A stretch of DNA of 60,183 nt, the filler included, from Dugesia japonica (taxonomy: Eukaryota), in the NCBI GenBank assembly GCA_001938525.1. It is 6 parts of 6 records of this genome, joined end to end, with 100 filler letters (N's around TTAATTAATTAA, not from the genome) between each part and the next. Parts side by side here need not be neighbours in the genome. Positions count along the whole stretch, not along the records: positions 1 to 11,261 come from MQRL01498440.1; 5 more parts are not named here. The stretch is one strand, 5' to 3'. Numbering within the stretch: position 1 is the stretch's first letter; each line of letters starts with the position of its first letter. This document shows, piece after piece, positions 36 to 52,830 of the stretch. A program made the position numbers and the translations under genes. The notes under the pieces were generated by a model, which was not told the origin of the DNA, did no database searches, and saw only the letters and a program-made list of their open reading frames with translations.

Positions 36-401
36 TTACTGGAAAATATGTGGTGGTGGCATTTGATTTTGAATATTCATGAGTGGATTTTGCTGAGCCA
101 AAAATGAATTCTGAATATACGATTGATCGGTTATTTCCTTTACTTGTTTAACATACATAACCCCATTTACAGTAGATGCAACAGGGAAAAAAGATGTCGG
201 ATCAATAATTGGATTAATCAGAGTTCGAGAAAAGTTAGCCAATTCTTCATCAACCATTTTCTGAGCTCTTTTTTTCATTATATCTACGTAATAAGCTTGA
301 TAATTTTCCAAATGAAATTTTCCGGATAAATGAGTTTTTCTAACGGATGGTGAATCGTGAGTGAGATACATATCACAGTAGTCACAATAATATTTAGGCA
401 T
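36..401 (-). CDS. SNRPC: U1 snRNP-specific protein C (U1C), intronless, 121 aa
   Basis: N-terminus [30 protein letters not shown] is the U1C matrin-type zinc finger; short Gln/Pro-rich tail. Confidence 0.96.
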
Positions 402-1206
402 TTTATTGAATATTTATTTTAATTTATTATTTTATAAACAAATATGTTCTTTAAATAATTTTCATGTTTTAAATATTTTTAAAATAAATTTTTAAAAATT
501 TAAATATTCTCTTATTTTACTACTAAAAGAATCCGAATTCGTAACTAATACTTTTTCTACAATACTTTCTATTTTTTTTTCAATTTCTCGAATATCACAT
601 AGAATCGAGAGTAAGCAGATATAATAAAATTACAATTTAATAAATTTCCATTTTCAATTTAATATTTATAAAATTTTAAATAATCAAATAAATATTTAAT
701 TTCCTTATTTTGTGAATTTATCTGTAACTATATAAATAATTTTCTACGTCTGTATGAATGTGAATTTTTTGAAATATTCGAGTTATAAAAGTTCGAGATA
801 AATTTTAATTTTTAAAAATTTTTAATAGTTAAAATAAATAATTTTTTGAAATTATTTCAAATTTGGAAAAAAATTTTTTTTATAATTTTGTTAAAACATT
901 TTTAGATATTTCTGATTATGTTAACAAAGAGGTATTAAATTAAAAAATAAAAGCTCTTTTTAAAATAATAAAAATCCGTCAGTTTTAATGCATTTTTATG
1001 AAAATTGTAGAAAAAGGAAAATTTCAAATATTATAACATTAATAATTTAATATTTTATTTCCTGTTTGTGAATTTATATTGTGTATAAATGGAAATTTTA
1101 AACATTTTTTTGTAATTGTGAAAATCCAGAAAAATTTAAAAAATCTAATATATTTATAATTTCCTGAATCTATGAATTTATCTGTAACGCTTTATATCCA
1201 TATAAA

Positions 1207-1806: not shown

Positions 1807-3495
1807 TTAGAGGCCTACTTTTAACTGAAATTTGTGAAATTTATTGAAATTTTCAATAAATAGTAATTTGTGGTTAACGGTTAGATGAATGTCATTTTTA
1901 TCATTCGCTAATTTAGTATAAGATTTCCATTCATCACTCATTATGATAGAACCTTTCTGAACAGTAGCCCTTATAATGGGTAATAATGTGGTAGCTGTTC
2001 TGTTCACTACTAATTGCAAAAATATTAGGTTGGTAAAAAAATAATTGCAGTTTTTAACATATTAAAGTAAAAGCAAAAATCTCGAAAATTATAAAGATAA
2101 TTTTTTCAAAATATGAACCATTACAATCAATACATTTCTCCCAATGAGAAATAAGTTTATTTATGCCAATAGAATAGAAATCGGCTGTCCTGGATTCGAT
2201 GAACTTGAGGAAGGCATTTTTAACATCGTATTCGTTATACAAGACATTCTCTTGAAGAAAATTGGAGAGATGATAAAAAAATGATAGTCGGTTAGCTACA
2301 GGTTTGGGGAGTATGATGGATGAGGCAGACTTTCAAATCCTAAATCATTTAGTTTGTGCAGGTATAGTTTTGCGACGTGTGGACGGGAATTGTCGTGAAG
2401 AATAATGGGATGTTTTCTGTTAACTAATGCAGCGCACATAGATTTCAATTTGCGGTTGATTTCCCCCATTTCTTGACAATATTTTTCTGCCGTCATAGTT
2501 TCGCCTTGATTTAAAAAGTTGTAATGAACTAGACCGGCTGTGGATCACCAAACCGTCATCATTGTTTTCTTTTGTTGCAATTTCGGCTTTGGAAAATGAT
2601 ATGGTGGTTCGCCTTTGTTCAACCATTGCGAGGCCCGCTTTCTTTTGCCGTATATAATACATTTTTCGTGGCAACTTACAATACAATCAAGAAAAGAATT
2701 GGTTTTATTTCTAAACAGATTCTCCTAGCAGATCTCGTTACGGCGATTTTTCTGAAAATCGTTCAAGTCATGAGAAACCCAATTATCGAGCTTCCATACT
2801 TTTCCAAGTTGATGGAGATGGTATAAAGCTGTTATATGACTTACGCCTAAATTCTTCTCAAGCTCCCGAGTTGTTGCGCGTAGACCTGCTTCAATCATAA
2901 CCTTCAAATCGTTCTTGCTAACTTCTGATGGACTTCCCCGGCCTTTGGTATCTTCAAGGCTCTCATCTCTACTCCAGCATTTTTTAAACCAAAATTACAC
3001 CGTTCTTTCTTTTGCAATTTTATTGCGGAATGAGTTATTGACTTTCCGAGTCGTCTCCGCTGCTTTAGATCCCAGTTTAAATTCATATAGGAATATTGCT
3101 CGTATTTGATATTTATCCAACATAACTTGCAAAAATAATATTTAACAATAAAATAGTAATAAAAATAAAATATTACTTGTACAATAAAGAATTGAATATC
3201 CGCTTCAAAATGACATATAGATTAATATAGTAAAACAAATGTTTCTTTTAAATAATGACTTTTAAAGTTATATTATATAAAACCGCAATTATTTTCTTAC
3301 CAACCTAATATATTTGCATTAGTCGCATCATCAACAATGCCAAAAACTCACAACTAATTTTCAGGAGCACGATCTCTGTGATATCTTAAAAAATGGAAAC
3401 AAATTAAAATTAAATAAGGAAAAGAAATTACCGAAATAAAGATTCATATGTTTAGATGATTCGTTGTTCTCCACCCAAGACAATCGGCTATTTGG
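1807..3495 (-). mobile_element. Merlin/IS1595(ISXO2)-like transposase pseudogene, interrupted by a mariner
   Basis: LGGEQRII*TYESLF (~3433-3485), YHRDRAPEN*L*VFGIVD (~3330-3384), then after the mariner LQLVVNRTATTLLPII...IMSDEWKSY...HLTVNHK: IS1595 DDE motifs. Confidence 0.85.
2025..3308 (-). mobile_element. Full-length (1284 bp) decayed mariner, cecropia/Hsmar1-like
   Basis: TIRs TTAGGTTGGTAAAAAAATAATTGCAGTTTT / AAAACCGCAATTATTTTCTTACCAACCTAA, TA duplication at both ends; fragmented transposase with WVSHDL, LHDNSRPH, HPSYSPNL and WEKCIDCNGSYFE motifs. Confidence 0.95.
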
Positions 3496-6135: not shown

Positions 6136-6480
6136 TCACATGAATACAATTTTAATGCTGATATTTTCAACCACAATGCTGCTTTCTTCACCACAATAAA
6201 CAATGTTGATCACAAGTTGTAGTGAATGGATCTTGAAATCTAATTTTGTTAAATACAATTGGTTTCGATGATCTTGATAGATGCGAGACCAACATTGATG
6301 AATAATAAAATCCAAATTGTAAACCACTAACCAATGTTCTTTTCCGAGATTTGATGTTTGCGTATTGACGACAATAGCTTTATTAACAGAAATAAATTGA
6401 AGCTTATCCAATGGATACACACCGAGAAACTCTGATTCAAGCCATTCTTTTCCGAATTTATCTAACTGAATTGAACTAAT
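6136..6480 (-). pseudogene. Adenain-like cysteine protease (Polinton PRO)
   Basis: FLGVYPLDKL...AIVVNTQTSNLGKEHWLVVY matches the adenain IxNTD...GxHW motif. Confidence 0.85.
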
Positions 6481-6551
6481 TAAATAATTGATGAACTAAA
6501 TAATAAAAACTTACTTCATCTTTAGTTAAAAATACATGTCATTGAGATTGT

Positions 6552-7345
6552 TTAAGCTAATATTGTTATGCTCGATGTAATTTGGATCTCGTTTTCAAAA
6601 AATCCATAAATTATTACAGATGTGGGTACACTCACAACAGTTCTTAGTTTAATATCTAATCTCATATTTCCTTGTAGAGGAAATTGACTCTGATTAATAT
6701 CAAAATCTTGAGCAAGTACAAATGTAAAAAAATGGATATTTATTCTTAAATTCATCCAGTGTTATTTCACACTTCAAATTTTGTTAGATTGCATGTAAGA
6801 TGTGCTAAAATTATCGTTTTCAAAATCTTAAACATGGCTCTCGATAATCAATGTTTTTAGATAAAGTTATAGATTTGGCATTGAAATGTTTAAATGTTGG
6901 ACTAGAGCTTCTATAACTTTCATTATATTGTTCTCCACTTTGAAATGTTACCAACAAAAAGTTAGGCAATCAACGATCTTCAAAGATTTGTTCCTTATAA
7001 AACGATGTACTATCTCTACTAAATGCATAAGCAACAATTCACTTGCATCTTATTGGGTAACTGCATTTTGCTTCTTGAATCCAATTTGATGTCTTGTCAG
7101 TACCGACAATTCAATTCGAACTTTTCTAACCATCAATTTTGCATAAAGTAATTGATATTCAGTTTCATCCTTTACAGATTTTAAACATAGTCTAGAAGTT
7201 GCTCTTTTCATTCGAATGTGAGCATTAACACTAGGAATAAGATATTTTGGTTGATCCATGAAATCAAGTTGCAATGATCCACATAGAGACAATGCTTTCG
7301 AGCCTTTAATAGACTTTTTTCTATTTTCCTTATCTCCATATCTAA
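6552..7345 (-). pseudogene. Polinton major capsid protein (C-terminal part, frameshifted)
   Basis: SLCGSLQLDFMDQPKYLIPSVNAHIRMKR, AKLMVRKVRIELSVL, YKEQIF, GNMRLDIKL...IIYGFFENEIQIT. Confidence 0.85.
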
Positions 7346-7684
7346 TTCATTATCATGATGTATCAATTTAATATGCATGTATTCTTTTTCATATATTTGA
7401 ATAACATCGTCATCAATAGTACTCAATCATTTTTCTTTATTTTCAATTGTAACAATTATTTCCTGTCATGAATCTTTTCCTGTTTCATATTCAATATTTT
7501 ATTTGTTATATAATTGAAAGGGAGAATATATAAAGGTGAAATCCATCAAAACTATTTCCAAACTTCTGACCAAATACATAGGATTTTGAAGCTCTACAAT
7601 GAAACTACTAGCTTTATTATCCGGATGAATAAGTGGACAACTATTACTCAGTAAAAGTGTATAGAAATTATTCGTTGTATTCAT
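7345..7684 (-). pseudogene. Polinton minor capsid (penton-like) N-terminal part
   Basis: NFYTLLLSNSCPLIHPDNKASSFIVELQNPMYL...EIVLMDF matches the adintovirus penton FYxTLPSN...PDN...F...L N-terminus. Confidence 0.8.
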
Positions 7685-7699
7685 TTAACTAAACGAGAT

Positions 7700-9500
7700 G
7701 CTAATATTCAAGTAGTTTTTTCGAATCCATGCCGCTTTACACAGTATTGTTTATGTTCTCCAGTTCCTTTTGATCTGATAATTTTTTCTATTCTAAATAC
7801 TGTTGGTGGTGGAATCACTTGTAATTCCTACTTATAAATTTTTCCTGCTATGATATTATCTTCATATTCTTTAATTACATACATGATTGGATTCTGTTTG
7901 GTATTGATTTTCGTTATTTGAAACACTTCATTGCTCCAATTACTATTGAAATTCTTCATGAATGGTGAAGCTGATATTTTTGATATTTTTACATGATCAC
8001 CAACTTTATATTTAAGTTTCTTGATTGCTTTTGTATCTTGTTTAGATAGCCATAGTTTTAAAGAATTATCAGATGATATATCAACGGGTCTTGCTCAATT
8101 CAATCTTTTTTGACTTTTATGATTATAACTATCAATTATCTATGATGAGACGTGTATCCAGGTTTTATTACCAGTATATATGCAAAGTACTTTTTCAATG
8201 CATCTCTCAATGTTAGATTAAATATTTCAACATATGCTGCTTTGTATTGTGAGATTAAAGAATAATGCTTGATGTTGGGTATGTAACTCAACAAAATATT
8301 TATGGTTCGTTCTTTTACTTGTGTGTAATTGGTTTTATTGTCTGTTGGGATTTATATGTAAATACTGTACTATATACGAAATATATTATTCAAATATAAA
8401 TACGTGATATCGTGTGATTAGCCTTATTTAAATTGAAAATAAATTAACAACCTTTTGAAATATTTTATTTATAGTCAACTAATCGCTGTAATTTATTGAA
8501 GCAGAGAAAAGGCCAGCCGTAGAGACAGGTTTTCTCAGTTCACAAGTTGCTGAAATTTTACAAGAAACCATCAGTATTTATACTGATTTCTAAACTACAT
8601 ACATGTCAATCATTTCAAATCATTATTAAAATAAATCCATTACAACTAAAATTATTCATAAAATATTTATAAATTTTCAAATTTTTTCAATAAACAAATC
8701 CATTACAGATAAAGTTATTTATAAAATATTCACATAGTGTTAATAAATTCATAAATAGAATAATTAACAAATCTATTACAGATAAAGTTATTTATAAAAT
8801 ATTCACATAGTGTTAACAAATTCACAAATCGAATATAATATTAGTAAAATAATGTCAAAAGAAAATAATATAAAACGTAACAATCAAGATTGAATAATGT
8901 CAATGATAATGTTAAATCANCTATCAAAACACGATTAAATCCAAGGATTAATATTGAAGTCTGCATCATCTGATTGATTTGATTCATTCTGGACTCTTCA
9001 TCTCTAATTATTTTGTATGTCTACATGTTTACTTTGTGCATGTGTACTTTGTATTTGTTGTTTGCATATGTTAATAACTCAACATTGATCTTGAAATGTG
9101 AAATACTATTCTTGACTTTTGAATTAAAGAATTCCTTTATAAATTCAGCTTGTAAATTGTCTGGATGTCAATGTTTAAATAATGTTTATAATTAAGCTTC
9201 CATATCATTAGCAAATTTTGATTTGACTGGAACAGCTCTTGCAACTCTACTAAATACATCAACATATGTTAGAATATACTTATTTCCTTTCTTAATTTTT
9301 GAATATGTAATCATCTCTATTAAATCCATATGCCATTAATCATCAATACCAAATGTTTTATACAATCTTGTTGGAAATCTTTTCAGTATTGGTTTGTTAA
9401 CCACTTTTTTGTCTCTTCTTTTGAATTTTTTTGTTTTCATTGGTGTTTCTAATCCTTTGAATCCTTCTGGATTTTTTGGGTCTGTCCATATTGTTTCCAT
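7700..9500 (-). pseudogene. Polinton retroviral-like integrase with C-terminal chromo-like region, split by a solo LTR
   Basis: KPILKRFPTRLYKTFGIDD*WHMDLIEM, YILTYVDVFSR, KAAYVEIFNL, YKVGDHVKISK, NWSNEVFQI, FRIEKII. Confidence 0.85.
8273..9084. mobile_element. Solo LTR (812 bp) inserted in the Polinton integrase
   Basis: TGTTGGGT...ACTCAACA termini with 4-bp TSD TTGA (8269-8272 / 9085-9088); internal ~70-bp direct repeats. Confidence 0.8.
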
Positions 9501-9579
9501 TACAACAGTTTAAAATAGATTTCAGATAAATATGTGACAATGATTTTAAATTACCCATTGTTTATATCAAATTTATAAG

Positions 9580-9882
9580 TTATAATGCTGCTAATGCGAT
9601 TGGTAGTAATGCCGCAAGAGATTCACTTGTTTGTTTATACATTATTTTTCTCGTTAATCTCTTTTTCTTTGTATTAACAAGGGAAACCAACAATCTTTTA
9701 TGACGCTGTAATGCCAACTTTTTCTCTTTGCATAGAATTACATTACCAAGAACAATATATACAACAATTTTTAATAAATCATTAATAACAAACTTTGGAA
9801 ATGACTGTAACATTTTCATTGTCGACTCTTGTGGAGTCTTTAACAATAATTTTAAATAAGAAAGACTTTGTTGAAATGACAT
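9580..9882 (-). CDS. Conserved small basic Maverick/adintovirus protein (putative core protein)
   Basis: IVLGNVILCKEKKLALQRHKRLLVSL...KQTSESLAALLPIALAAL resembles the GNVPL...LxRHK...QxGGFLxxLL family; located between ATPase and integrase. Confidence 0.65.
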   Translation of the reverse strand: MSFQQSLSYLKLLLKTPQESTMKMLQSFPKFVINDLLKIVVYIVLGNVILCKEKKLALQRHKRLLVSLVNTKKKRLTRKIMYKQTSESLAALLPIALAAL

Positions 9883-10258
9883 AATATTTTTTAATTAACA
9901 CATTTATAGATTGTTTATAGCTTTATCCATTTCCCAGTTGATTGAATCTTTATCTTTTCATTTTTCTTTGAGTCTCTCTTTGATTGTTTTTTACTCTTTT
10001 TTTCTTGTTTGCAATCTTTGAATGTTTTTTCGTAATCTTTGATAATGTCTTTTATTGTTTCCTTGATTGACTTTTTATAGATGTTTTTATTGTTCTCTTT
10101 ATTGACTTTTTATTGCATTCTTTATTAAATTGATATCACTTGGAATACTTACATCATTGTTGACTTAATTGTTTATTTCTTCAACTTTCTTGGTTTGATT
10201 AATCCTTTTTGGATCAGCTAAAACTTTACTAAATTTAAACATTTGTAAATATTTCAAC

Positions 10259-10884
10259 TTACTTTAATTTTTTATGTACTGTAACATCTTTTGGATTAAA
10301 AATATCAGTTTGAACTCTTAAATCATCTGGACATTGCTGTGTAAAATTCAGAAAATTATATCCACGTGGTTTTGCTGTTGCATCTTTAAATGAATCCAAT
10401 AGAAATCGTCTATTATTTGGATACGCTTGTCTTACTAGTAAATCAACAATAGTTTGATCTCTTGAGTTTTTGATTATAACCAAGTATTGCACATTTAAAT
10501 TACGATTTCTATGATCACTTCAATGATGAAATAGATTTTATGTAATGAATAGCACAGTAACACCACAATTTCTCTATATTTTTGTGAATAAATTACTCAA
10601 GTCTTTTTCTTGTTTGCTTTCTGGTACAGATCATCAACAACAATAACAACACCGTTAGTTAATCTCTTGATCCAATTTATATCGAATCCATTTATAATAG
10701 TTATTTTTATACCACTGAATTCAGATTGAGTCAATCTATGCTTTTCATCTGCTTCTCTATGCCAATATATTTTGTTGAATTTTGACTTGAATAAATTCGA
10801 TTTCAACAATCTCCTCACAAACAGAGTTTTTCCTCTACCACTTGGACAAACAATTTGATAGACTGCATCATTTCTTAACTCCAT
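10259..10884 (-). pseudogene. FtsK/A32-like DNA packaging ATPase (Polinton), frameshifted
   Basis: Walker A-like CPSGRGKT, Walker B VIVVDDL, QYLVIIKNSRD, DATAKPRGY. Confidence 0.88.
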
Positions 10885-10974
10885 TATAATTTATGCTTGT
10901 TTAAACGTATCACTTTAATTATTATTGTTTATAGATGTATAAATACCCTTTTTAATATTATCTATTAGTCATAA

Positions 10975-11201
10975 ACAAGAATAGCAAATATTAATTACAG
11001 TTGAAAATGGATCAAGAAGTTGTCAACAAAATGAAATTTCCAATAGGAAAACTAGCTCAAGTTGTGGAGAAAACTGACAAGTATACTCTTGTTTTCTTCC
11101 AAACCGGAAACTGTAAAATCATGGGGTGCAAGAAGCCAATAAAACCAAAGAAATTACAATACAATATCAAAATTATTCAATTACAGTCGCTAGCAATTGT
11201 A

Positions 11202-11204
<3 letters not shown>
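10975..11204 (+). pseudogene. TATA-binding protein (TBP)-like ORF, divergent from the Polinton ATPase; truncated by (GAT)n and scaffold end
   Basis: YTLVFFQTGNCKIMGCK resembles the TBP repeat core T(A/L)LIFxSGKxVxTGAK; upstream out-of-frame RIANINY and downstream IQLQSL resemble the xQN starts of the two TBP repeats. Confidence 0.6.

Positions 11205-11261
<57 letters not shown>
11202..11261. repeat. (GAT)n microsatellite
   Basis: About 20 units ending the scaffold. Confidence 0.97.
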
Positions 11262-11361
11262 NNNNNNNNNNNNNNNNNNNNNNNNNNNNNNNNNNNNNNN
11301 NNNNNTTAATTAATTAANNNNNNNNNNNNNNNNNNNNNNNNNNNNNNNNNNNNNNNNNNNN
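11262..11361. other. Artificial scaffold-joining spacer N44-TTAATTAATTAA-N44 (also 23344-23443, 31773-31872, 40874-40973, 50582-50681)
   Basis: Identical 100-nt six-frame-stop linker occurs five times. Confidence 0.97.
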
Positions 11362-14242
11362 TACCATAAATTGCAAGGCAGACCAAGTGTTACGGTATCA
11401 ATTCAAGGAAGAAAAGTAGAATGTCTATTAGATACAGGAGCTCGAATTAACGTGATGAGTTTTTTTTGTTTTAATAAACTACGAGAAGTAAATTTAGAAA
11501 TGAGTGATGAAAGATTGCGTTGTGCAAATAATAGTACACTTGAAATTTGTTGGAAAAGTTAAAATTGGAGTGATAATTGATGAAGTTTGCATAGAGATTA
11601 CCTTCTTAGTTGCTGAAAGAGTAACACCAGATCTGATAGGAGGAATAGATATGCAGAAGATTTTTGGATACCAGCTTNNNNNNNNNNNNNNNNNNNNNNN
11701 NNNNNNNNNNNNNNNNNNNNNCATTTGCAATATTGAAGCAAATTTTGGAAGACAAATTAAAAAAGGAGAGCGATTGACAAGAGCTTTAAATATTTGTAAG
11801 ATTAAAGATGATCAACGGTTAATGAAAAGAATTGAAAGTAAAGAAGATGTTTTTTTGGCAGATAAATGGGATACAGGACGCACACATCTGACAAGACACA
11901 AAATAATCACAAGTGGTGAACCAATCAATGTAAAACCGTATAGACAACCAATGAACTTAGAATCTAAAATTGAAGAAGCTATCCAAAACCTTTGCGAAAA
12001 TATTATTATCAGGAAATGCAACTTACCATGGAATACCCCANTGATATGTGTTTGGAAAAAGGAAAAGAAAGACATAAGAATATGCTTAGATTTTAGACAA
12101 TTGAATGCAGTAACGAAAAGACAAGCTTTTTGCATGCCTAATGTCGATGAAATGCTGGACAAGTTAGATGGAGCCAAAAGTTTTAGTTCAATAGATTTAG
12201 GAAATGCATACTATCAGGTAGAGCTCGAAGAAGAATTATAGAAAAAACGGCGTTTTCAAAGAAGCGCGGGCAATATTGTTTTAATAGAATTCCATTTGGC
12301 TTTGCAGCGGCACCAGGGACATTTCAAGAGATGATGACAAAAGTGGTAGGCGGAATCAATGGATCCATGGTTTATCTTGATGATATACTGATATTTACGA
12401 ACAATAAAAATCAACACTATGAAGTTATTGAAAGAGTATTGACGGAACTAATGAAGGCTGGTCTAAGAATTAATCCGGAAAAATGTCAGTTTCTTCAAAG
12501 TGAAATCAAGTTTCTTGGACACATAATTAGCAGGGATGGTGTTAGAACTGATCCGTCTAAAATAAGAACATTTGGCAAACCTAACTGTGTGAAGAAGTTA
12601 CGAAGTTTCTTGGGAATTTGGAATTATTACAGGAAATTTAAAGAAAACTACTCAAGAAAATCAAAGATATTAGAACAGTTGTGTAGCGGACCAAGCAGCA
12701 AGAAATTAGAATGGACAGATGAAATAAACGATACTTTTGAGGGTCTAAAAAAATCTTTAATGACTGCACCAATATTGTGTTTTCCGGACATAAACAAAGA
12801 ATTTATATTAGATACAGATTCCAGTTTTGATACGATTTGAACAGTATTGTCACAGAGAGATAAAGAAGGAAGATAAAGAGTCGTTTCCTATGGATCACAC
12901 TCAATGACAAGTCATGAAAAGGGATACTGCATTACACGAAAGGAGTTATTGGCTGTTTATTATTTTTGTATGCATTTTAAACATTACTTGTATGGTAGAA
13001 GATTTACTCTAAGAACAGATCAGAAAGCTCTAACCTTCATGATGACGACGAAGAAACCAATTACGTCGGAATTCTAGACATGGATTAATTATCTGACCAG
13101 TTTAGATATGATTTTGGAATATAGAAAAGGAATTCAACATGCTAATGCAGATGTCAAATGTCACATGAAGATGCCAAGAAAGGGAAGATTAAAACGAGAA
13201 TACTGAATATAATTGAAAAAGAAAAAGAAGATCATTTAAATATTTCTCAGGAAACAGATTTAATCAAGAAAATGAAACTTCCGGATGACAAAGTACGTGA
13301 AACAATAGAAGAAATACATAAATTATTATGTCATGCAGGANNNNNNNNNNNNNNNNNNNNNNNNNNAAACAAATATATTGCAAAGAATTTGTGCAGCCAA
13401 ATACAGAAGATAGTTCGAAGTTGTGAAATTTGTCAGAAGACCAACGTAGTGATAACACCAACTAATGAGAAGACAAAGAGTATAGAAGCTACCAATTTAT
13501 TTGAAGTGATTTTCACAGATATATGTGGGCCAATGCGAGAAACAAGTGACGGAAAAAATACACTCTTGGAATAATCTACCAGTACAGTAAATATATGGTT
13601 CTTATAGAATTGCCAAGACAAGACGAGGAAACAATACGAAAAGCTATTTTTGAAAAGTGAATATTGAGATTTGGATGTCCAAGAGAGATAAGATTAGATT
13701 GTTGGAAAGCGTTTGAATCCGGAGTTATGAGAGAGTTTGTACATAAGCTAGACATTAAACTTTGCTTTTCGAGTCCCTATCATCATAATGCAAACGGACA
13801 AATTGAAAAACAGTTCAGAACAATTCAAGATTTAATTAATGAAACACTTCAGGAAAGAAAGTCAACAGATTGGGCAGATCTTTTACCGGAAAGAGAATTT
13901 ACAATGAACGCAACCAAACAGAAGACGACTAGAAAGAGCCCGGCTGAGATTTTATTTGGAAAGACAATTAGCAGAGAAAAGTGGTATGAGTCAGACGTTT
14001 CAGATAGAACTAAAGAAAATACTTCAGACGTGGTTACAAAAAGAGAATTCAAAGTGGGCGATATCGTATCCATCAAGGTAGAAACAAGAAATAAAAGCCA
14101 AGACAGGTTTGAAGGACCCTATCAAATAATTGAGAAAATTCATGAAAGGCGGTATGCGGTACAAGGAGAAAATGGACAGCGATTAGAAAGAAATGTAGAA
14201 AAACTCAGAAAGTTTCTTAAGAAGGGGGATATGAGGAAATAA
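11362..14242 (+). mobile_element. Ty3/gypsy pol pseudogene (PR-RT-RNaseH-IN)
   Basis: LLDTGA protease; PWNTP, DFRQLN, YLDD RT; DTDSSFDTI RNase H; HAG/CEIC and TDICGP integrase; FEGPY motif; multiple stops and frameshifts. Confidence 0.95.
14219..14229 (+). other. Polypurine tract, marking the probable start of the 3' LTR at ~14230
   Basis: AAGAAGGGGGA at the end of the integrase frame, followed by T(A)TGAGG. Confidence 0.65.
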
Positions 14243-16662: not shown

Positions 16663-17614
16663 AGTAGATGGATAGTATAGCACGGGAACATCTCCCCCTG
16701 AAGGGCAATTTTTTTTGGCCGATTTTTTTGTTTAAATTAGGTGGAATTATTTATTTTGTTTAAATGAAGTAAAATTTTTGATTTTTGTTTAAATTAAGTC
16801 AAAGTAATTATTTTTGTTTAAATTGAGTGAAATAATAAATTTTTTGTTTAAATTAACGCAATTAGTGATTCTTTGTTTAGATTAAATGAAATTAAATAAC
16901 TATTTGTTTAAATTTAATGAAATGAATAATTTTTGAGTTTCTTCATGGAAAAGTTATTGAAAAGCTTATGTTTGCTTAAATTAAAATTAAAATTAAAATT
17001 TAAAAAAATTAGAATTTATCAAATGTGATTTTCTCCCCGACAATATTAACATAAAATATTTTCCCCGAGCAATATTAGTATCAAATTAATCGCTCTAGGC
17101 AATATTAAGATTAGATACTTATCAGACAATGTTAAAAATAATATATAAAAAACAAATGAAAAGACTAATCAAAACATAAAATTTACTGTTGATAAAACAT
17201 GAATAATCAGTCATTATGTACAGTTGTTTAAATCTGGGACTTAATTGTAAATTAGATTTTAATAGTACAAATTAATTAATTAAATAACAAAAAAAATTAC
17301 CTGTAAATGTGCTTCTTTTCATAATAATTAAGTTATATCAATAAGTTAAATCATTAAGTTCAATTATTCATTTGATTAAATTTAAACAAATAATTATTTA
17401 ATTTCGATTAATTTAAACAAAGAATCACTAATTTTGTTAATTTCAATAAAAAATTAATAATTTCACACAATTTAAACAAAAATCAATAATTTTTCTTCAT
17501 TTAAAAAAAATAAATAATTTCACCTTCTTTCAATAAAAAAATCGGGAAAAAATCGTCCGGAAAAAAATTCCCCTTGGGGGGCTGGGTGATCCTGTGCGCT
17601 ACTATCCATCTACT
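16663..17614. mobile_element. Non-autonomous fold-back element with Polinton-type termini
   Basis: AGTAGATGGATAGTA...TACTATCCATCTACT perfect 15-bp ends, long imperfect inverted arms, 6-bp TSD CAAATA (16657-16662 / 17615-17620). Confidence 0.8.
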
Positions 17615-26189: not shown

Positions 26190-26972
26190 TTAATCAGAAT
26201 CTTCACTTTCATCATCAAAGTCTTCTCCAATAACAATTTTTGGCTTCACTCTCGATTTTGAGGTTCTTGTTATCAATACAGTTTTCCTACCTGTTTCTTC
26301 GATTTCCTCTTCCGATTCAATGTCTGACGCTTCAACAAACTCCCTTTCTTCTTCATCCATGTCAACATCTTCGTATTCAGATTCATTTTCGAACTCCTCA
26401 ATATCATTTTCCTTCAAATAGTTTTCAAAATGAATTTTATTGAGATTCGCTATTCCATTCTTTTTAACCAGACGCTCAATTAAATCAGTTTCTATAGATT
26501 TTTCGACATTTGCACCTTTCAGAGCCTTCATTTCTCTTCTGTTTTCGTTTCGTTCAACTTTACGAGATTTAGCAATTAGAACTTTGGTGGTGTTCAATGC
26601 TATCTGTCTTCTTCGTTTTATCACTTTTTTTAAACATGCGAATCTGGTTTTATTTTTTTTGATGATGTGTGCTGGCCAATAAATTAAATGGCGATTTATT
26701 TGATCTAAAGCTTGATCGACGTTTTCCTTTAATTTTATTTTTTCCCAATGCTTAGCTGGATATGGCATTCTCTCTGGTTCTCTAATATATAAATAGAGAA
26801 TATTATCCTTCTCTTTAACTGTTGCGTATCTGTAATTCGCCAAGGGACATGCTGTTCGGTTGCAGAGACCATTTATGCTATATTCATTTTTACAGAATTT
26901 CTCAGTTTTAGTCTTGCACATGAAGCTACAATGATTCTTACTTATTATATCCCATATGATATCTTCACTCAT
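26190..26972 (-). CDS. MAK16: MAK16 homolog (60S biogenesis factor), 260 aa
   Basis: DIIWDII..HCSF, FCKNEYSINGLCNRTACPLANYRYATV, WEKIKL, LIYWP, acidic C-terminus; probable 43-nt 5' intron 26973-27015 ending at the ATG. Confidence 0.96.
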   Translation of the reverse strand: MSEDIIWDIISKNHCSFMCKTKTEKFCKNEYSINGLCNRTACPLANYRYATVKEKDNILYLYIREPERMPYPAKHWEKIKLKENVDQALDQINRHLIYWPAHIIKKNKTRFACLKKVIKRRRQIALNTTKVLIAKSRKVERNENRREMKALKGANVEKSIETDLIERLVKKNGIANLNKIHFENYLKENDIEEFENESEYEDVDMDEEEREFVEASDIESEEEIEETGRKTVLITRTSKSRVKPKIVIGEDFDDESEDSD

Positions 26973-29430: not shown

Positions 29431-30489
29431 GGTTACAAGAAGTAATGACGATTTCCTTTACAAAAGGATCGTTTCTTACGTTTTGGTCTATTCAAATATA
29501 AGGTTTTGATAAAAAAATATTCCAAAAATAAACCTTTTGAAATATCTCAGAAATGTGTATCTCAGTCTGATAGACAAGTGCTATATTATGAGCCCGATGA
29601 TTGGATACATAGTAATATTTTTCCCGCTTTATGAATAATTGCTATAGCTCAGTGTGTTTGCAGTTACAAATTGACATTTTGAATTCAGATCCTTGTACGA
29701 ACGAGAAAAACGCAGAATGCTTATACAGGAAAAAATATAGAAGTGAAAGAGAAAAATGAATCAAAAAAGCAGATGACAATAAAGGTAATCAAAACAGTAA
29801 CAATAAGATAATATTGTTGTTTAAGTATTCAAAAAACAGTTTTATAAATTTTGAAAAGCGTATTTATATTTATATTTAATGAATCAAGATGGTATTGTAA
29901 CTAGCAACCACATCAAAATCACAGTTCTCATAAAGTGTCAGCAGTGGATGACAATTGTAGAATCATTGCCAAATAATGTTCAAGAATCCATTTATTCAGT
30001 AATAAAAAAGTTTTTTGGCTACAAGGAAGAAGATGCAAATTGAAGATTTTGTAACCACAAATTCTTTAAATTTATCTGCAGCAATCGATCTATTTCTGTA
30101 CGGTGACTAGAAAAAATTATGAATAGGCATTAAAGAAAAAATAAAGATTCCGTCAGATTAAGATACAAGAAATTGGTATAGTTCAAAGTATATCAAGTCG
30201 AAAATTTTTTTACAAAAGATCGACGATTTGAGCTAAGTTAATCAACGATCAAATCAAAGATATGAAAAGTTTGCTATTAGACTGAGACAGTTGGTAAGAG
30301 AAATTTTGACGGTGAATTAAAAAGAAGACATGACCGTGAAGGATATAATTTCAAAATGAATTTGTTCCAGAACAGTAAAGTAGTCAATCGCAATGAACTC
30401 AGATATATTCTTGGAAAAATTTGAGAAATTGACGATAAATTTAAAAAACTCAATGAGTATTGAAGAAAAGTCAGAAGTTATTACAACTA

Positions 30490-30951
30490 CTACTACTTTT
30501 GGTTGATCATGGTCCATTAGACATTGCACGCATGTTCCGTATGTATTTCTTGAATGCATATCTGCATTACCATGTGCTGTACCTTTTCTAAATGCCATCT
30601 TAATATCCAGGGTACTCGAATAATTGATCCATATTTGGAATTGTGCCGTTATTGGTTTTTTAGTAGTTAGCATGATTGTAATCGCTTTATGATCTGTACG
30701 TAGTTTAAATCTTTTACCATACAAGTAGTGATTGAAATGCCGACAGAAATAGTAGATCGCCAACAATTCTTTCCTAGTAATACAGTAACCCCGTTCATGA
30801 TCATTCATGGAATGAGATCCATATGATATTACATGTTCATGTCCGTATTCATCCTTTTGAGATAATACCGCTCCAATGGTATCAAAACTTGCATTGGTGT
30901 CGAGTATAAATTCTTTTCGGAAATCTGGGAATATCAATATTGGAGAGCTTA
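30490..30951 (-). mobile_element. Gypsy RNase H fragment, same family as 11362-14242
   Basis: FILDTNASFDTIGAVLSQKD...YCITRKELLAIYYF...RTDHKA...HGNAD. Confidence 0.92.
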
Positions 30952-31229
30952 NNNNNNNNNNNNNNNNNNNNNNNNNNNNNNNNNNNNNNNNNNNNNNNNN
31001 NNNNNNNNNNNNNNNNNNNNNNNNNNNNNNNNNNNNNNNNNNNNNNNNNNNNNNNNNNNNNNNNNNNNNNNNNNNNNNNNNNNNNNNNNNCCTAAAAAAC
31101 TCATTACTAAGAAATTTATTACTAGATGATTTTTTAATATTATTATTATTTAAATTAAAATACTCTATTTTATTTACATTTTTATAGCCAATATCATTAT
31201 CAACATCAAAATTACCTAATAAATCGCTC

Positions 31230-31620
31230 CGACCATCGCCTCTCTAGAAGGAGCTTAACCCTTTGGGTACTCTATAGCTTCATATTCCCCAGTTAGTTCA
31301 TTGCTTTGTTCTTCTACTGGTGTATCCTCATTAGAACCGATAGCTGCTATCATTTTTTGATTTTTCTGTTCCTCTGTTGATCTCTGTTCATGAAATCTCT
31401 AGTCTCATTACTCTGATTTCTGAAATTACCATGTCTCTTATTATTTATATTATCAACTATTCTCGCTTTCTGTCTTCTTTCTAAATTTGTGTAACACTCT
31501 ATTGTCTTATGTCCCTCAGAAGACATCTTCCACACTGAATTGTTGGGCATTCTCTACGCATGTGTCCCAATGCTCCACATGCATAGCATTGAATACTTTT
31601 TTTCATTTGGCAATCTCTGT
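31230..31620 (-). mobile_element. Gypsy gag fragment with two CCHC zinc knuckles
   Basis: CYACGALGHMRRECPTIQCGRC...(frameshift)EGHKTIEC. Confidence 0.8.
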
Positions 31621-31872
31621 TTATATGCCCTGGTTTTTAGAATGTCCAACAAACTGGAATTCGTCTACTTTCATCATATTTATTTATTTTCATATTTGTG
31701 TTGGGGTGAAACACCGGACTAAGGAAAAAAATAATGGTGTAAGTAGACACGGAATTCGAAAGATCTACATAANNNNNNNNNNNNNNNNNNNNNNNNNNNN
31801 NNNNNNNNNNNNNNNNTTAATTAATTAANNNNNNNNNNNNNNNNNNNNNNNNNNNNNNNNNNNNNNNNNNNN

Positions 31873-32370
31873 TTGCGGTAAAACTGAGTTATGTATTTTT
31901 GATCGTCCATCACCTCAAGCAGTTATTGAAAATGCTGCATTTGATGTTTTTTCCAATGAATTCAATTTCTGATTCAAAAAGTGATGTATAGTTTTATATA
32001 AATAGATCTTAAACTGAATATTTAGATTTGAAAGATATTTTATTGTATATTAAAGTGAAGGTAGTTAATAAGGCAGTAAAGATTTGAGTGACAAACATGA
32101 TGCGATTCCTAGTAACTATATGTTGCATACACTTTTTAAGGATTTAACTCTTTAATTTGATAATTACAAAATTAAAGATGGAAATGGAACCTATATTCAA
32201 AAAGCATTAATTGAAACTATATTGAATTATAATGGTGACAGTAAAAATATTTGTCTTACAGCAATGGGGTATGCATCAGAGGAAAATAGAAAAGCTTCTA
32301 TAAAAATATCCAAATCATTGTCTCTATGTAGTTCATTGCAATTAGATTATATGGATCAACCGAAATATTT
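31873..32370 (+). pseudogene. Polinton major capsid N-terminal half (second copy)
   Basis: CGKTELCIFDRPSPQAVIE...EYLDLKD..LYIKVKV; YIQKALIETILNY; SLCSSLQLDYMDQPKY, nearly identical to the peptide at ~7245-7290. Confidence 0.85.
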
Positions 32371-33288
32371 TGATTCTTTGCTTACTACAACAGATTTTTT
32401 AGAGATTTTTGATGACCTTATTGTTGAAAATATAGTTTATAGTTTATATATCCTTTTTATTGAAAATATATTAAACCCTATGAAAACACTATAACTTAGA
32501 AAATTAAATAAAACATTTCAAAATCATATAAAAGCTTATAATTATCTTATTACATCATGCAGCTACTTTATAGAGCCCATATAATTACCACATAACATAT
32601 ACAAAACCATATTAAAATCATATTATGTCCAAATAAACTCATATAATTACCTTATGAATCCTAAATAACCATATTAAACATTATAATGAACTTAAAAAAC
32701 CCGTATAATTATTATGTAAACCGTATTATTACTCTATATATAAAACTTAGAAAATTATATTAAAACCATACAGAACCTTATAGAATCGTGCAAAGTCCTA
32801 TTAACTCTACAAAATTATTTAAAATCGCACATGCACTCCTATTCTACTTAATAGTAATGTTATTTGTCTTACTTCCATTCGTGGTACAATGTCTTTGTTT
32901 CAGCTGCTCACGTGTTGCAAATAATTATTGATATGAATGTAATTCAAAAAATTATGTTTTCGTAACAATTCATTTCCACAAATGAAGAAAATATGATACG
33001 CATTTAAAATTTACTTAACTTTTTGAACATGAATAAATTTGAAAGAAAATAATAAATTTATTGTTTAAGAATATATTTCACTTCAAATTGGATGTAGAAG
33101 AATTTTAGATAATCATATAATGCTTCAATCATCTTTAGTTACATTAAGTGAACTACTACTTAACAAGTGAGAAAATAGTATCTAATGTACCACTAACTGT
33201 CTTAGTAGACTATGTGGTCCACGTATAAAATACATAANNNNNNNNNNNNNNNNNNNNNNNNNNNNNNNNNNNNNNNNNNNNNNNNNNC

Positions 33289-33515
33289 GTTGAACCGTCA
33301 GTATTGGCTGGTCATCAATTGGGATTAAATAAGAAAAATGCAATTTATCTGATAAGAAAGACGGAAATTGTTGAGTTTGCAATTAGTACATCATTTTATA
33401 AGGAGCAAATCTTTGGTGATCGTCGTTTACCCAACTTTCTTTTAATTACATTTCAAAATGGAGATCAATATAATGGTAGTTATAAAGCATCTACTTCAAT
33501 ATTTCAACATTTAAA
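33289..33515 (+). pseudogene. Polinton major capsid, downstream fragment
   Basis: VEPSVLAGHQLGLNKKNAIY...FYKEQIFGDRRLPNF...YNGSY..STSIFQH. Confidence 0.85.
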
Positions 33516-34905
33516 TGGCATATCTTCTAAAACGATCTGAAATTCTATACTTCTACAATTCAACCGAAAATGAAGGAGCTGCTTGCGTCGATTTGTTGGA
33601 TGAATATCAAACTCAATGTGTTGTGCAATATTTTAAATAACTCTCCTCAAGATGCATGTACACAAACAAAATCAATATAGACTCCTGGTGTCTCGCAGCA
33701 AGTCCAAGAATAAACAAACTAAACCCATCTCTAAATGAATGTCTCGAATGGATAAATGGGAAAAAAGCATGGAAAAACTCAAATGCAAAGAAAACGCACT
33801 TTCAGCGAATAAGAACTGCGATAAATTTTTTCGAAAGGATTCATGATACAGATATATCGTTTAATGTACTTAATAAAGAAATAGTCCTTTATATGACAAA
33901 CAAGACAAAAGAAAAATATGTTATTACTCATATCTCTCGTAAAGAAATTTCAAATATCATTCACAAAGTACTATTTGATTCATACGCTGAAAAATGGAAA
34001 ATAAGCAAAGTAAACAACTTGATATTCTCAGCTATTCAAATGAGCCTTATTATTAATAAAATGATTTTCAAAAGTGACCTCAATGAATTTCAGTGGAATT
34101 TCATTCATAGTGCACGAACAAAATCACTATCGATACGTGGTAGATCCTTTTATGAAATACAAAACTGTCGGGGCTGTTTTACTGAAAATGAATCTTTATC
34201 GCATGTTCTTCAAAAATGCAAAATGAATCAGGCAATAGCAACTGAAAGACTTCACGCTTGCCTTGAAATTATTGTCAACAAAATTAAAACTTCAAATTTT
34301 ATTGTTGAGTTCAATAGAATAAATAAATTTATTTCGGATTCTAGGGAAAGAGTGGATGTTACAGTAACTAATGTTGAAAAAAACAATATATTTAATTGAT
34401 GTCAAATGCCCAATAGACTTCGAAAAGAATTTTGAAGAGTGTAATAAAAGAAATTTGAAAAAATATGATCAGCTAAAAAATAAAGTGAAAATAGCGAAGC
34501 CTGACTTTGAAGTAGAATTATATACTTGCATAATTGGATCACTTGGCTCAATTCCTGCCACAACCATTTGAATTCTGGAAATTAAAAAAATAAAAAAATA
34601 TATAATTAAAAGAATATTAAAAGATTGCTCCAAATCAAATATAGCATACTCAGCAGAAATATGGAAGTTCCACAAAATTGGTATTAGAAACCACAAAATA
34701 ACCTTCAATATTGAAGAATAGTATTTAAAGAATTGAAGAAATGTGTGTGGGTTCCATGTAGAACCAAAAACAAGACTNNNNNNNNNNNNNNNNNNNNNNN
34801 NNNNNNNNNNNNNNNNNNNNNNNNNNNTGTGTGGGTTCCATGTAGAACCAAAAACAAGACTGTTTGTTTATTCAAACTTGTTATATTTAATAAATTTTAT
34901 TTCAA
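33515..34905 (+). mobile_element. 5'-truncated REL non-LTR retrotransposon (NeSL/R2-group) abutting the capsid fragment
   Basis: WNFIHSAR, CRGC...ESLSHVLQKC knuckle, RERVDV...IYLIDVKCP (PD-(D/E)xK-type), IIGSLGS, IWKFH; AATAAA near 34889. Confidence 0.88.
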
Positions 34906-35920
34906 ATTGCTCCATTAACGAGGCGCTCAACTGGCCTCAGACGCATATCATCCGCACGATATCTAAATCCTGGTGGTCGAAAATTCATGTGATTTACCTA
35001 TCGAAAGAAAAAATTTGATTTTCAGAGCAGTGAGCTCGGAATTTGAAATGAAATTGTTGATAACCTATCTACAGGAAATTATCTGGATTTTTTAAGAATA
35101 AGCGAACAATGACTAAACTCTTACAAAACATTCTGAGCTGGTCAAATACTGGAAAATGGAACGCTCAATTTCAACGTGGTTCCATTTCCATTTCAATTGG
35201 TGCGTCCCCACTCTCGAAAAAGCTTCTCTATGATAGGTCTATCTTTCAAGATTAGTGGCATATTATACATAGGGCATGAACATGCACTCTTCCTGTAGGA
35301 TCTTATCTTAGTCTCGGAAATAAAGTCTGCAGAAGATGTGCCCTTCATGTTGAAACTCAAGCCCATGTCCTTTGCCACTGCGGTTTATCATCGGATTTTC
35401 GCATTGGGCGTCACACTGATGTTCTGGAACTTCTTGCGGACTTTGTTTGACATAATAAGAGTTTCAAAGTTATTGTTGGCCGGTTATGTGAATTTATGAA
35501 CCGCGCTGATTGAGTTGATTTACAACTGATCAATGTGGAAAAGAGAATGATTATATTGCTGCATTTGAAAATTTCTTATGACACTTCTAACAACATCAAA
35601 TTAGCCAGAGACAACAATATCAGGAAATATACACCATTCATTATATATATTAAACGTAATCTTCCCAATTGGAATGTTTATCTTAAGACGATCTCAGTAG
35701 GATATCTGGGATCGTGGTGTGTTGAAAATGAGTCTATCCTGAAATACGTTGGTCTCAAAGTCAATATTATAAGGAAGTTTGCACTTGCAAGCATAAAAAT
35801 CTGCACCACATGGTCTACAAAGAACTGGCAATTTCACAATGGACAAGCTAATTGAGCTGACTTTGATATGTCTGTTATTAATGATGTCAGCGACACTAAG
35901 TTCTTTGTGTATAATTAAAT
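34906..35920 (+). mobile_element. Second, diverged REL non-LTR retrotransposon 3' part
   Basis: KVCRRCALHVETQAHVLCHC...GRH knuckle (~35325-35415); LKISYD...ARDNNIRKY...VGYLGSW...WQFH. Confidence 0.8.
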
Positions 35921-51942: not shown

Positions 51943-52133
51943 ATTTTTCTTTATTTTATCGGGAAAATTTTCATAGTAATTGCATTTACAATACCAATGT
52001 AATTTGTACTTTTTTTAAATAAATTATTTATTGTGCTTGTTTTCTATATTTCACCGATGGAAATTATTTACAATATTTGATATCTAATTTTTACGATAGT
52101 TAACAATAAATTCTAAATTGCTGAATTTAAATA

Positions 52134-52830
52134 TTGACCTTCATTATCAGTTTAAGTCAAGGTTATCGAAGAATAAATCGATATGATAGTTTCAACTTAC
52201 ATACAGGCTTTCTAGATATTGCTGACGCTTTTGGTAGCATCACCATCGAGCATATACTTTGTTTGCTTGGTCGTATGGGAGTGTCAAAGCGGCCTCTGGT
52301 TAGATTAGGAGATTGTAAATTGACTGTTCGAGCTACTATGGTAATAAAAATAGAATAGTGTTCCGTCAAGGATGTTACATGTCAATGTTACTTTTTAACA
52401 TTGGCGTCATAAATGAAATTTTAAAGATTCATGGAAAAGTCAGTTATGCTGGCAATTTCATCTATGTCTTGACATATGTGGATGGCCTTGCGTTGGGTGC
52501 TTCTACGAAGGACTCTCTTCAAGACATGTTTAATAACGCTGTCGGCATAGCTGATTTGTCTTTTTTAGAGTTTCGACTGTATAAATGTGCTTATCTCCAC
52601 TGCCCAGAAAGAACAGCTCACTTCTTCAAGCTGAAATTTAAGGTGAGTGCATACCTAAACTTCTTGATAATAATTCATATCATTATATTGGAGTTGATTT
52701 TAAAATAATCTAGTTTTAAAAAATCCATCGAATATGCTTGAAAAGTCTGTCCGATATTTGAAGAAGTTCACTAAAGCATATAAAACTTTCATCCATTCAA
52801 GGTTGACTTTGCTTTATTTATAATTCCGTC
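52134..52830 (+). mobile_element. Decayed non-LTR reverse transcriptase
   Basis: FLDIADAFGSI, FRQGCYMSMLLFN, LTYVDGLAL. Confidence 0.8.

Follow-up and report, generated by a model that had tools for sequence, protein, structure and literature searches.

How Polintons time the expression of their capsid genes, and whether they pass through a real virus-like late phase, is a question addressed by a gene and a promoter box that lie close together in Dugesia japonica DNA. The window analysed here is the whole stretch of 60,183 nucleotides (filler included; six joined parts of assembly GCA_001938525.1), in which a TBP-like gene and the packaging ATPase of a decayed Polinton/Maverick diverge head-to-head. 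This locus preserves the 5' half, itself broken, of a gene for a shortened TBP fold that Polintons carry, and we lean towards the reading that in working elements its product would serve as a late-gene promoter factor.

The element surrounding the gene is recognisable from its remnants, most of which were matched to metagenomic loci of relatives. The packaging ATPase (10262-10890, minus strand; profile E 6e-34 and 2e-24) is broken into pieces near 10520-10630 and is followed on the same strand by a small basic conserved gene that we take to be 'PW-like' (9583-9894; 9.7e-29) and by a retroviral-type integrase (7711-9509; rve 2.5e-4 and locus relatives), itself in pieces and interrupted by ~740 nt containing a 73-nt tandem duplication. 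Downstream lie the 5' piece of a putative penton, presumably the minor capsid protein, with the remainder missing (7502-7684; 2.6e-12), pieces of the major capsid protein (6555-7346) and two pieces of an adenain-type cysteine protease (6139-6495), the last two identified by matches to locus relatives. The minus-strand order is ATPase-PW-like-integrase-penton-capsid-protease, all in pieces, and the matches of the ATPase, integrase, capsid and protease remnants to the locus families bear out an earlier note, made from the sequence alone, that had assigned this DNA to a Polinton. A search of the window with locus relatives found no pPolB, the element running into gaps, and neither terminal inverted repeats nor a target-site duplication bound the element in the window; terminal repeats were likewise absent from six long loci scanned, all of them partial contigs.

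A second major capsid gene remnant of the same kind, also in pieces, occurs at 31829-33537 (plus strand), and its region has a 77% inverted match to 7239-7347. Directly behind the scaffold gap that ends the TBP-like gene is an LTR-retrotransposon pol (RVT_1, RT_RNaseH_2, rve) at 11314-14242 (plus strand), with a related pol piece at 30317-31243 (minus strand). Host genes in the window include a U1C zinc finger (36-413, minus strand) and Mak16 in a single open frame (26190-26972, minus strand), and a MITE-like element of ~840 nt at 16712-17552 has inverted arms built of 29-nt repeats. The frame at 2054-3221 (minus strand) resembles what we take to be a mariner transposase remnant, and those at 33641-35855 and 52131-52708 (plus strand) are presumably non-LTR retrotransposon remnants.

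The window copy of the TBP-like gene is read in two frames of the plus strand. Its first strand, RIANINY, lies in frame 1 at 10978-10998, and the start codon of relatives is lacking at the corresponding position; the remaining reduced N-lobe plus the first C-lobe strand lie in frame 3 at 10995-11201 (KLAQVVEKTDKYTLVFFQTGNCKIMGCK...IQLQSLAIV, ending at 11201). The frame-3 piece is 74% identical (E 3e-24) to residues 10-75 of the natural 153-aa protein P0001, whose residues 2-7 are identical to the window's IANINY, and a chance match was rejected on these grounds. The earlier note had described this frameshifted gene as one TBP repeat plus the start of a second, on the opposite strand about 100 nt from the ATPase start and downstream of a TATA box near 10938. 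Each of these points holds: the ATPase starts 94 nt away, at a Met codon at 10884 (minus strand), the box TATAAATA occupies 10938-10945 (plus strand), and full-length relatives place the fragment as a reduced N-lobe with the first C-lobe strand. An (ATG)20 microsatellite and the scaffold gap (11202-11361) truncate the gene, so that the second lobe of this copy is not visible. The fragment matches the locus relatives strongly (tblastn 2.9e-29; family profile 2e-14); by itself it has no match in a Pfam scan of the frame-3 piece, its pairwise comparison with a TBP-family protein from rat is not significant (E 0.66), and the TBP assignment therefore rests on the full-length relatives.

This copy is a pseudogene, a fossil of the system, and cannot work: its start codon is missing, its frame breaks near 10998-11004 and its neighbours are in pieces. 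The frame break is real DNA, given that a single sequencing contig spans 10895-11096 with zero differences and zero gaps, and an assembly slip was rejected as its cause. Related copies are many, since 1039-2529 sequencing contigs per run align to 10200-11200, mostly less than 95% alike; summed contig depth over this interval does not equate to copy number. Four sets of raw RNA reads bearing the same species label gave 17, 1023, 83 and 812 aligned reads, on both strands from the integrase to the 5' end of the TBP-like gene and thin beyond 10998, which carry no strand or timing information. They show transcription of related copies and are uninformative on the window copy itself, because 4 of 1935 are at least 95% alike to it (0, 2, 0 and 2 in the four sets).

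The fold of the full-length relatives is that of TBP. P0001 matches the Pfam TBP profile (PF00352) at 5.8e-12 and 45.7 bits, above the curated cut-off of 22.9, six copies from relatives' loci score 47-67 bits, and a PDB sequence search retrieved solved TBPs, the best being archaeal TBP 1mp9 (1.4e-12). An AlphaFold model of P0001 (pLDDT 94.8) is predicted to form a two-lobed saddle, residues 1-150 aligning to both TBP lobes. With this model as query, every Foldseek row with E below 0.001 among the matches listed was a TBP entry, and structure alignment (VIA) to human TBP 1jfi gave Z 13.2 over 148 residues at 2.7 A, the next unrelated fold scoring Z 6.8. Two structure aligners thus agree on a natural relative, and the profile and structure searches that had been proposed as checks of the TBP identity both returned the TBP fold.

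Sequence searches yielded 43 family proteins, and a view by clusters gave 94 representatives with E no higher than 1e-10, almost all of which belong to the family. There were 161 metagenome matches, 80 of which were fetched as loci; family matches among those listed (P0001-P0043, P0045-P0200) come from ENA, JGI, Logan and MGnify, and the taxon labels 'Archaea' and 'Arthropoda', resting on 1-9 members, were left out. Scanning viral contigs with alignments of the TBP-like protein, the capsid and the ATPase retrieved no locus. Most members are single saddles of 145-185 aa, and those of the window's sub-clade are ~150 aa. Those that bear a name received it automatically, as ordinary TBP, and the family is therefore open to confusion with cellular or archaeal TBP in metagenomes.

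Quick trees separated the family from eukaryotic and archaeal TBP by a branch with SH-aLRT 99. These trees took in 87 of 168 family rows and, separately, 25 family rows set beside 38 others (eukaryotic, archaeal and unnamed two-repeat), with long branches in the latter and with no named TRF2 or NCLDV TBP among the rows. The proposed phylogeny with TBP/TRF thus separates the family from cellular TBP and agrees with the initial view that this is not host TBP; a host TBP/TRF pseudogene was rejected on the strength of this branch, and a bacterial single-lobe protein was also rejected as an identity. Codon comparisons of 50 TBP-like gene pairs gave a median dN/dS of 0.16 over 42 pairs, the other 8 being saturated, and the highest value, 1.0, came from one near-identical pair. 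These sequences indicate that the family is under purifying selection.

The gene is also linked to Polinton genes in relatives, as had been proposed for verification. At least one core Polinton gene accompanies it in 40 of the 80 loci and in 21 of the 24 loci of at least 4 kb, and across these loci it is found with ATPase, integrase, capsid, protease and pPolB, the last in 9/80 (DNA_pol_B_2 2e-21 for one such locus, L055). The relatives' ATPase matches Pox_A32 (5e-6) and Adeno_IVa2, their integrase matches rve (1e-12 to 1e-14) and chromo, and the family protease profile matches adenovirus protease (5e-6). A full-length relative of the capsid is predicted to fold as a double jelly roll, with a model match of 2e-16 to the PBCV-1 capsid. 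Locus L081, which was fetched via its ATPase alone, carries the TBP-like gene directly before the ATPase. Taken together, the TBP-like gene is a widespread, selected and little-described Polinton gene.

The L081 element sits inside a bacterial MAG record. Among the other conserved genes of these loci, some of which carry C2H2 fingers or KilA-N, is an unnamed ~160-aa family that often adjoins the TBP-like gene (L004 9576-10052, L055 6585-7049 and 24 further loci), has no Pfam match and occurs as tandem double copies in some loci. Five loci (L028, L029, L030, L043 and L045) encode a leucine-rich-repeat protein with a hydrophobic N-terminus, a candidate host-interaction gene, preceded in 5/5 by the YATAAAC box described below. 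Neither a TFIIB-like Pfam match nor an RNA polymerase gene was found among the 41 locus proteins scanned, which are part of 709 ORFs.

Two classes of promoter box distinguish the TBP-like gene from the virion genes. Before the window TBP-like gene, TATAAATA is a canonical TATA box 40 nt upstream of the first codon position. The motif alone is weak evidence, because it occurs 55 times in the window; as a family trait, TATAWA lies at -70 to -20 of 23 of 38 dereplicated TBP-like starts (an assignable start being present in 63 of 81 TBP-like ORFs), against 6.5 in shuffles and a highest value of 13 among 200 shuffles. The window box is likely an early promoter. An initiator-like motif, TCA[TC]T / TCATAAWT, lies ~10-20 nt before the TBP-like start codon in many loci (10967-10976 in the window), ~30 nt behind the TATA box.

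On the other strand, the window ATPase is preceded by TATAAAC at 10927-10933, 49 nt before its Met codon, which is likely a late promoter element. The same motif stands 37 nt before the PW-like Met (9913-9919) and before the integrase (9566), and CATAAAC precedes the penton (7755), all on the minus strand; CATAAAC is also present at 10970, before the window TBP-like gene. In the 69 of 80 loci kept after removal of near-copies, TATAAAC is the top over-represented non-microsatellite 7-mer (189 vs 102). Within 100 nt on the sense strand, YATAAAC precedes ATPase (23/26), penton (12/18), capsid (8/10) and protease (4/6), and never occurs there on the opposite strand; it also precedes PW-like genes (5/7 and 11/11), PLA2-like genes (10/14), integrase (10/15) and the unnamed family (19/27). 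Corresponding counts are 1/57 for TBP-like starts, 0/7, 1/8 and 2/16 for other TATA-bearing families and 18/743 for coding-interior windows. Pooled virion-type starts carry the box in 83 of 103 cases vs 3.9 in 60 shuffles, a pool that was fixed after the box had been seen and in which the four a-priori virion genes give 47/60, drawn from loci that are mutually related and were all chosen for having the TBP-like gene. The box lies at -40 to -31 in 36 of these 83, and 54 of the 83 are outside labelled coding DNA and 29 inside upstream coding DNA. Almost only virion-type starts have the C (62 hits in 104 vs 4 in 110), and the box is found in both sub-clades. It is absent before the ATPase of L081 and from all 32 labelled starts of 12 IMG/VR pPolB elements without a TBP-like match, a control that is partial, includes two duplicates and belongs to another Polinton lineage, so that lineage and gene are confounded in the comparison. 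The suggestion in the earlier note that the protein was 'possibly controlling late genes' thereby gains genuine though indirect support from the box before virion-type genes.

The residues kept and lost in the family were counted over 168 members each below 80% identity to one another, and rat and flatworm TBP were aligned with the family for comparison. The C-lobe is whole, with the YEPE[LI]FP stirrup, both of its Phe (167 and 167 of 168) and both glutamates of the E-x-E pair (157/168). Three of the four DNA-kinking Phe are kept (162, 167 and 167 of 168), the first intercalating Phe being replaced by Pro in 157/168 and the second kept in 162, and the N-lobe Asn is also kept. R47 (162), M49 (166) and N114 (166 of 168) are near-invariant replacements at hydrophobic or Thr positions, which we take to face DNA in TBP structures. 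Position 39 is still I/L/V in the family; an aliphatic TBP residue at this position clashes with C-G pairs, and the sequence accordingly offers no simple reason for a preference for C. The N-lobe helix-2 region has at most 22 residues in 119/168 members, compared with 28-34 in two-repeat TBPs, and in the P0001 model the stretch from residue 52 to 63 lacks a long helix; the longer sub-clade keeps a helix-length, non-basic stretch there in the rows shown. The 23 comparators of this residue analysis included the family members P0115 and P0131 and the three-repeat P0122, which were excluded from the trees. In Ravarani et al. 2020 (PMC7221094), the C-lobe glutamate pair is described as a TFIIB contact and a basic patch on N-lobe helix 2 as the binding site of TFIIA, TAF1, Brf1 and Mot1.

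From these observations we infer the following course of events in a working element. The TBP-like gene would be made early, from its normal TATA box, by the host machinery and host TBP. Its product would then bind YATAAAC before the packaging, capsid and protease genes, recruit host TFIIB through the kept stirrup together with RNA polymerase II, and escape those host regulators that grip the N-lobe of TBP, whereupon the virion genes would be switched on. The protein is likely the element's own switch, because the capsid and packaging genes share an altered TATA box. A fuller form of this proposal, which strikes us as evenly balanced between true and false, is that an animal Polinton lineage runs a herpesvirus-like early-to-late switch through one 150-residue protein. 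No smaller viral TBP would then be known; the protein would have acquired a specificity for YATAAAC, would connect to host TFIIB and Pol II, and would ignore the host factors that remove or hold back TBP.

YATAAAC does not need a private reader, because host-type TBP can bind C at this position with partial activity: structure 1qn3 has C-G Hoogsteen pairs there (available text of PMC4402545), and in plant cells 27% of the activity remained with TATAAACG (available text of PMC10005294). Also weighing against our reading are the occurrence of the box before the integrase and the unnamed family, the CATAAAC before the window TBP-like gene and the lack of a box before the L081 ATPase. It is conceivable, if rather unlikely, that YATAAAC serves host TBP as a weak TATA box and that the TBP-like protein is a decoy or repressor, which soaks up TFIIB or occupies TATA boxes and thereby silences early or host genes. 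Binding of the C(-25) variant by host-type TBP is in keeping with such a decoy, as are the loss of one kinking Phe and the fact that the TFIIB-contact glutamates are the best-kept surface. However, fixed polar replacements on strands that we take to face DNA suggest a new specificity rather than a loss, and a merely weak box need not show the near-exclusive association of C with virion-type starts.

A role for the TBP-like protein in replication, at genome ends or in packaging, with the box read by another element protein such as a zinc-finger or unnamed family, seems less plausible still. The strongly remodelled N-lobe and the further conserved genes of the loci, some with C2H2 or KilA-N domains, would suit such a role, whereas the retention of both TFIIB-contact glutamates and the nature of the box, a TATA variant at TATA distance, argue against it; moreover, zinc-finger and KilA genes are present in part of the loci only and the box is in both sub-clades. 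It is quite improbable that the gene is real but the box has no connection with it, either marking polyadenylation or termination of the upstream gene or arising incidentally from codons for Tyr/His-Lys-Gln. The box does often overlap the upstream stop codon, and 29/83 are in coding DNA, yet 54/83 are non-coding, the box is essentially missing after genes without a virion-type successor (pPolB 0/10, c3 0/15, c11 0/8 and capsid 1/11), and it precedes ATPase even without a nearby gene end, for instance in the divergent promoter of the window. A late-gene promoter factor acting through YATAAAC is thus the reading that we prefer. The one-protein switch, if real, would furnish Polintons with a defined late phase, together with an orthogonal promoter-factor pair. 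The natural loss of the N-lobe regulator surface is in any case informative for TBP biology, and the gene and its matching box are open to a cheap direct test.

Larger DNA viruses are well known to carry TBP-like genes; the Polinton gene with its box is little described. In the accessible literature its sole trace is the label 'TBP' in the legend of Fig. 5 of Starrett et al. 2021 (PMC8502044; preprint 10.1101/697771), and Repbase, bioRxiv supplements and subscription papers may hold further annotation. The gene so labelled, likewise TBP-like, belongs to a MELD virus or a related mid-size pPolB element and is possibly a member of the same family. It is a legend label only: section 3.4 of the available text has no family, structure or promoter analysis, and the supplement text has no match to TBP or TATA. 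The animal Mavericks/Polintons of Barreat and Katzourakis 2021 (PMC8097293) share with the present elements a core of ATPase, integrase, protease, major and minor capsid and, in relatives, pPolB, here with ATPase-PW-like-integrase-penton-capsid-protease on one strand. Word searches found no mention of TBP or TATA in the main text of that paper, of PMC10748475 and PMC6431247, or of 2026 preprints, and the readable supplement files of PMC7221094 have no mention of Polintons.

Compared with cellular TBP/TRF and archaeal TBP (PF00352), the family has the same two-lobed saddle, C-lobe stirrup, three Phe and N-lobe Asn. It differs in its size of ~150 aa in the window's sub-clade, a cut-down N-lobe helix 2 and N-lobe stirrup, an identity of 22-26%, its own branch and its place in a mobile element; of the canonical TBP features, the TFIIB-contact glutamate pair is present and the four intercalating Phe and the full basic N-lobe helix 2 are not. 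The Nucleocytoviricota and poxvirus TBP-like proteins described in the available text of PMC7221094 resemble it in that they retain the DNA-binding Phe and have lost the regulator patch of the N-lobe, and BFVD structure matches of the P0001 model to viral proteins reach E 5e-8 and weaker. According to the same text, their TFIIB-contact positions have diverged and several of these viruses also encode a viral TFIIB, whereas the Polinton family keeps both glutamates and has no TFIIB-like or RNA polymerase gene among the scanned locus proteins.

The closest parallel in logic, if our reading holds, is to ORF24/BcRF1/UL87 of beta- and gammaherpesviruses, in which early genes have normal promoters, late genes have an altered TATA, and a viral TBP mimic works with host Pol II. 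In the available text of PMC12529657, ORF24 reads a TATT variant (TATTWAA) on late promoters. It is large, with several domains, contacts Pol II directly as part of a complex of six proteins, and is predicted to lack TFIIB binding. The Polinton protein, which does not belong to that family, is in contrast a bare saddle of 150-185 aa with clear TBP sequence homology, BcRF1 being a weak structural match to the P0001 model (E 5e-3), and its putative target is YATAAAC rather than TATTWAA. If true, Polintons would represent a further independent lineage of DNA viruses that has rewired TBP, unlike the giant viruses with their own TFIIB and the herpesviruses with their six-protein complex.
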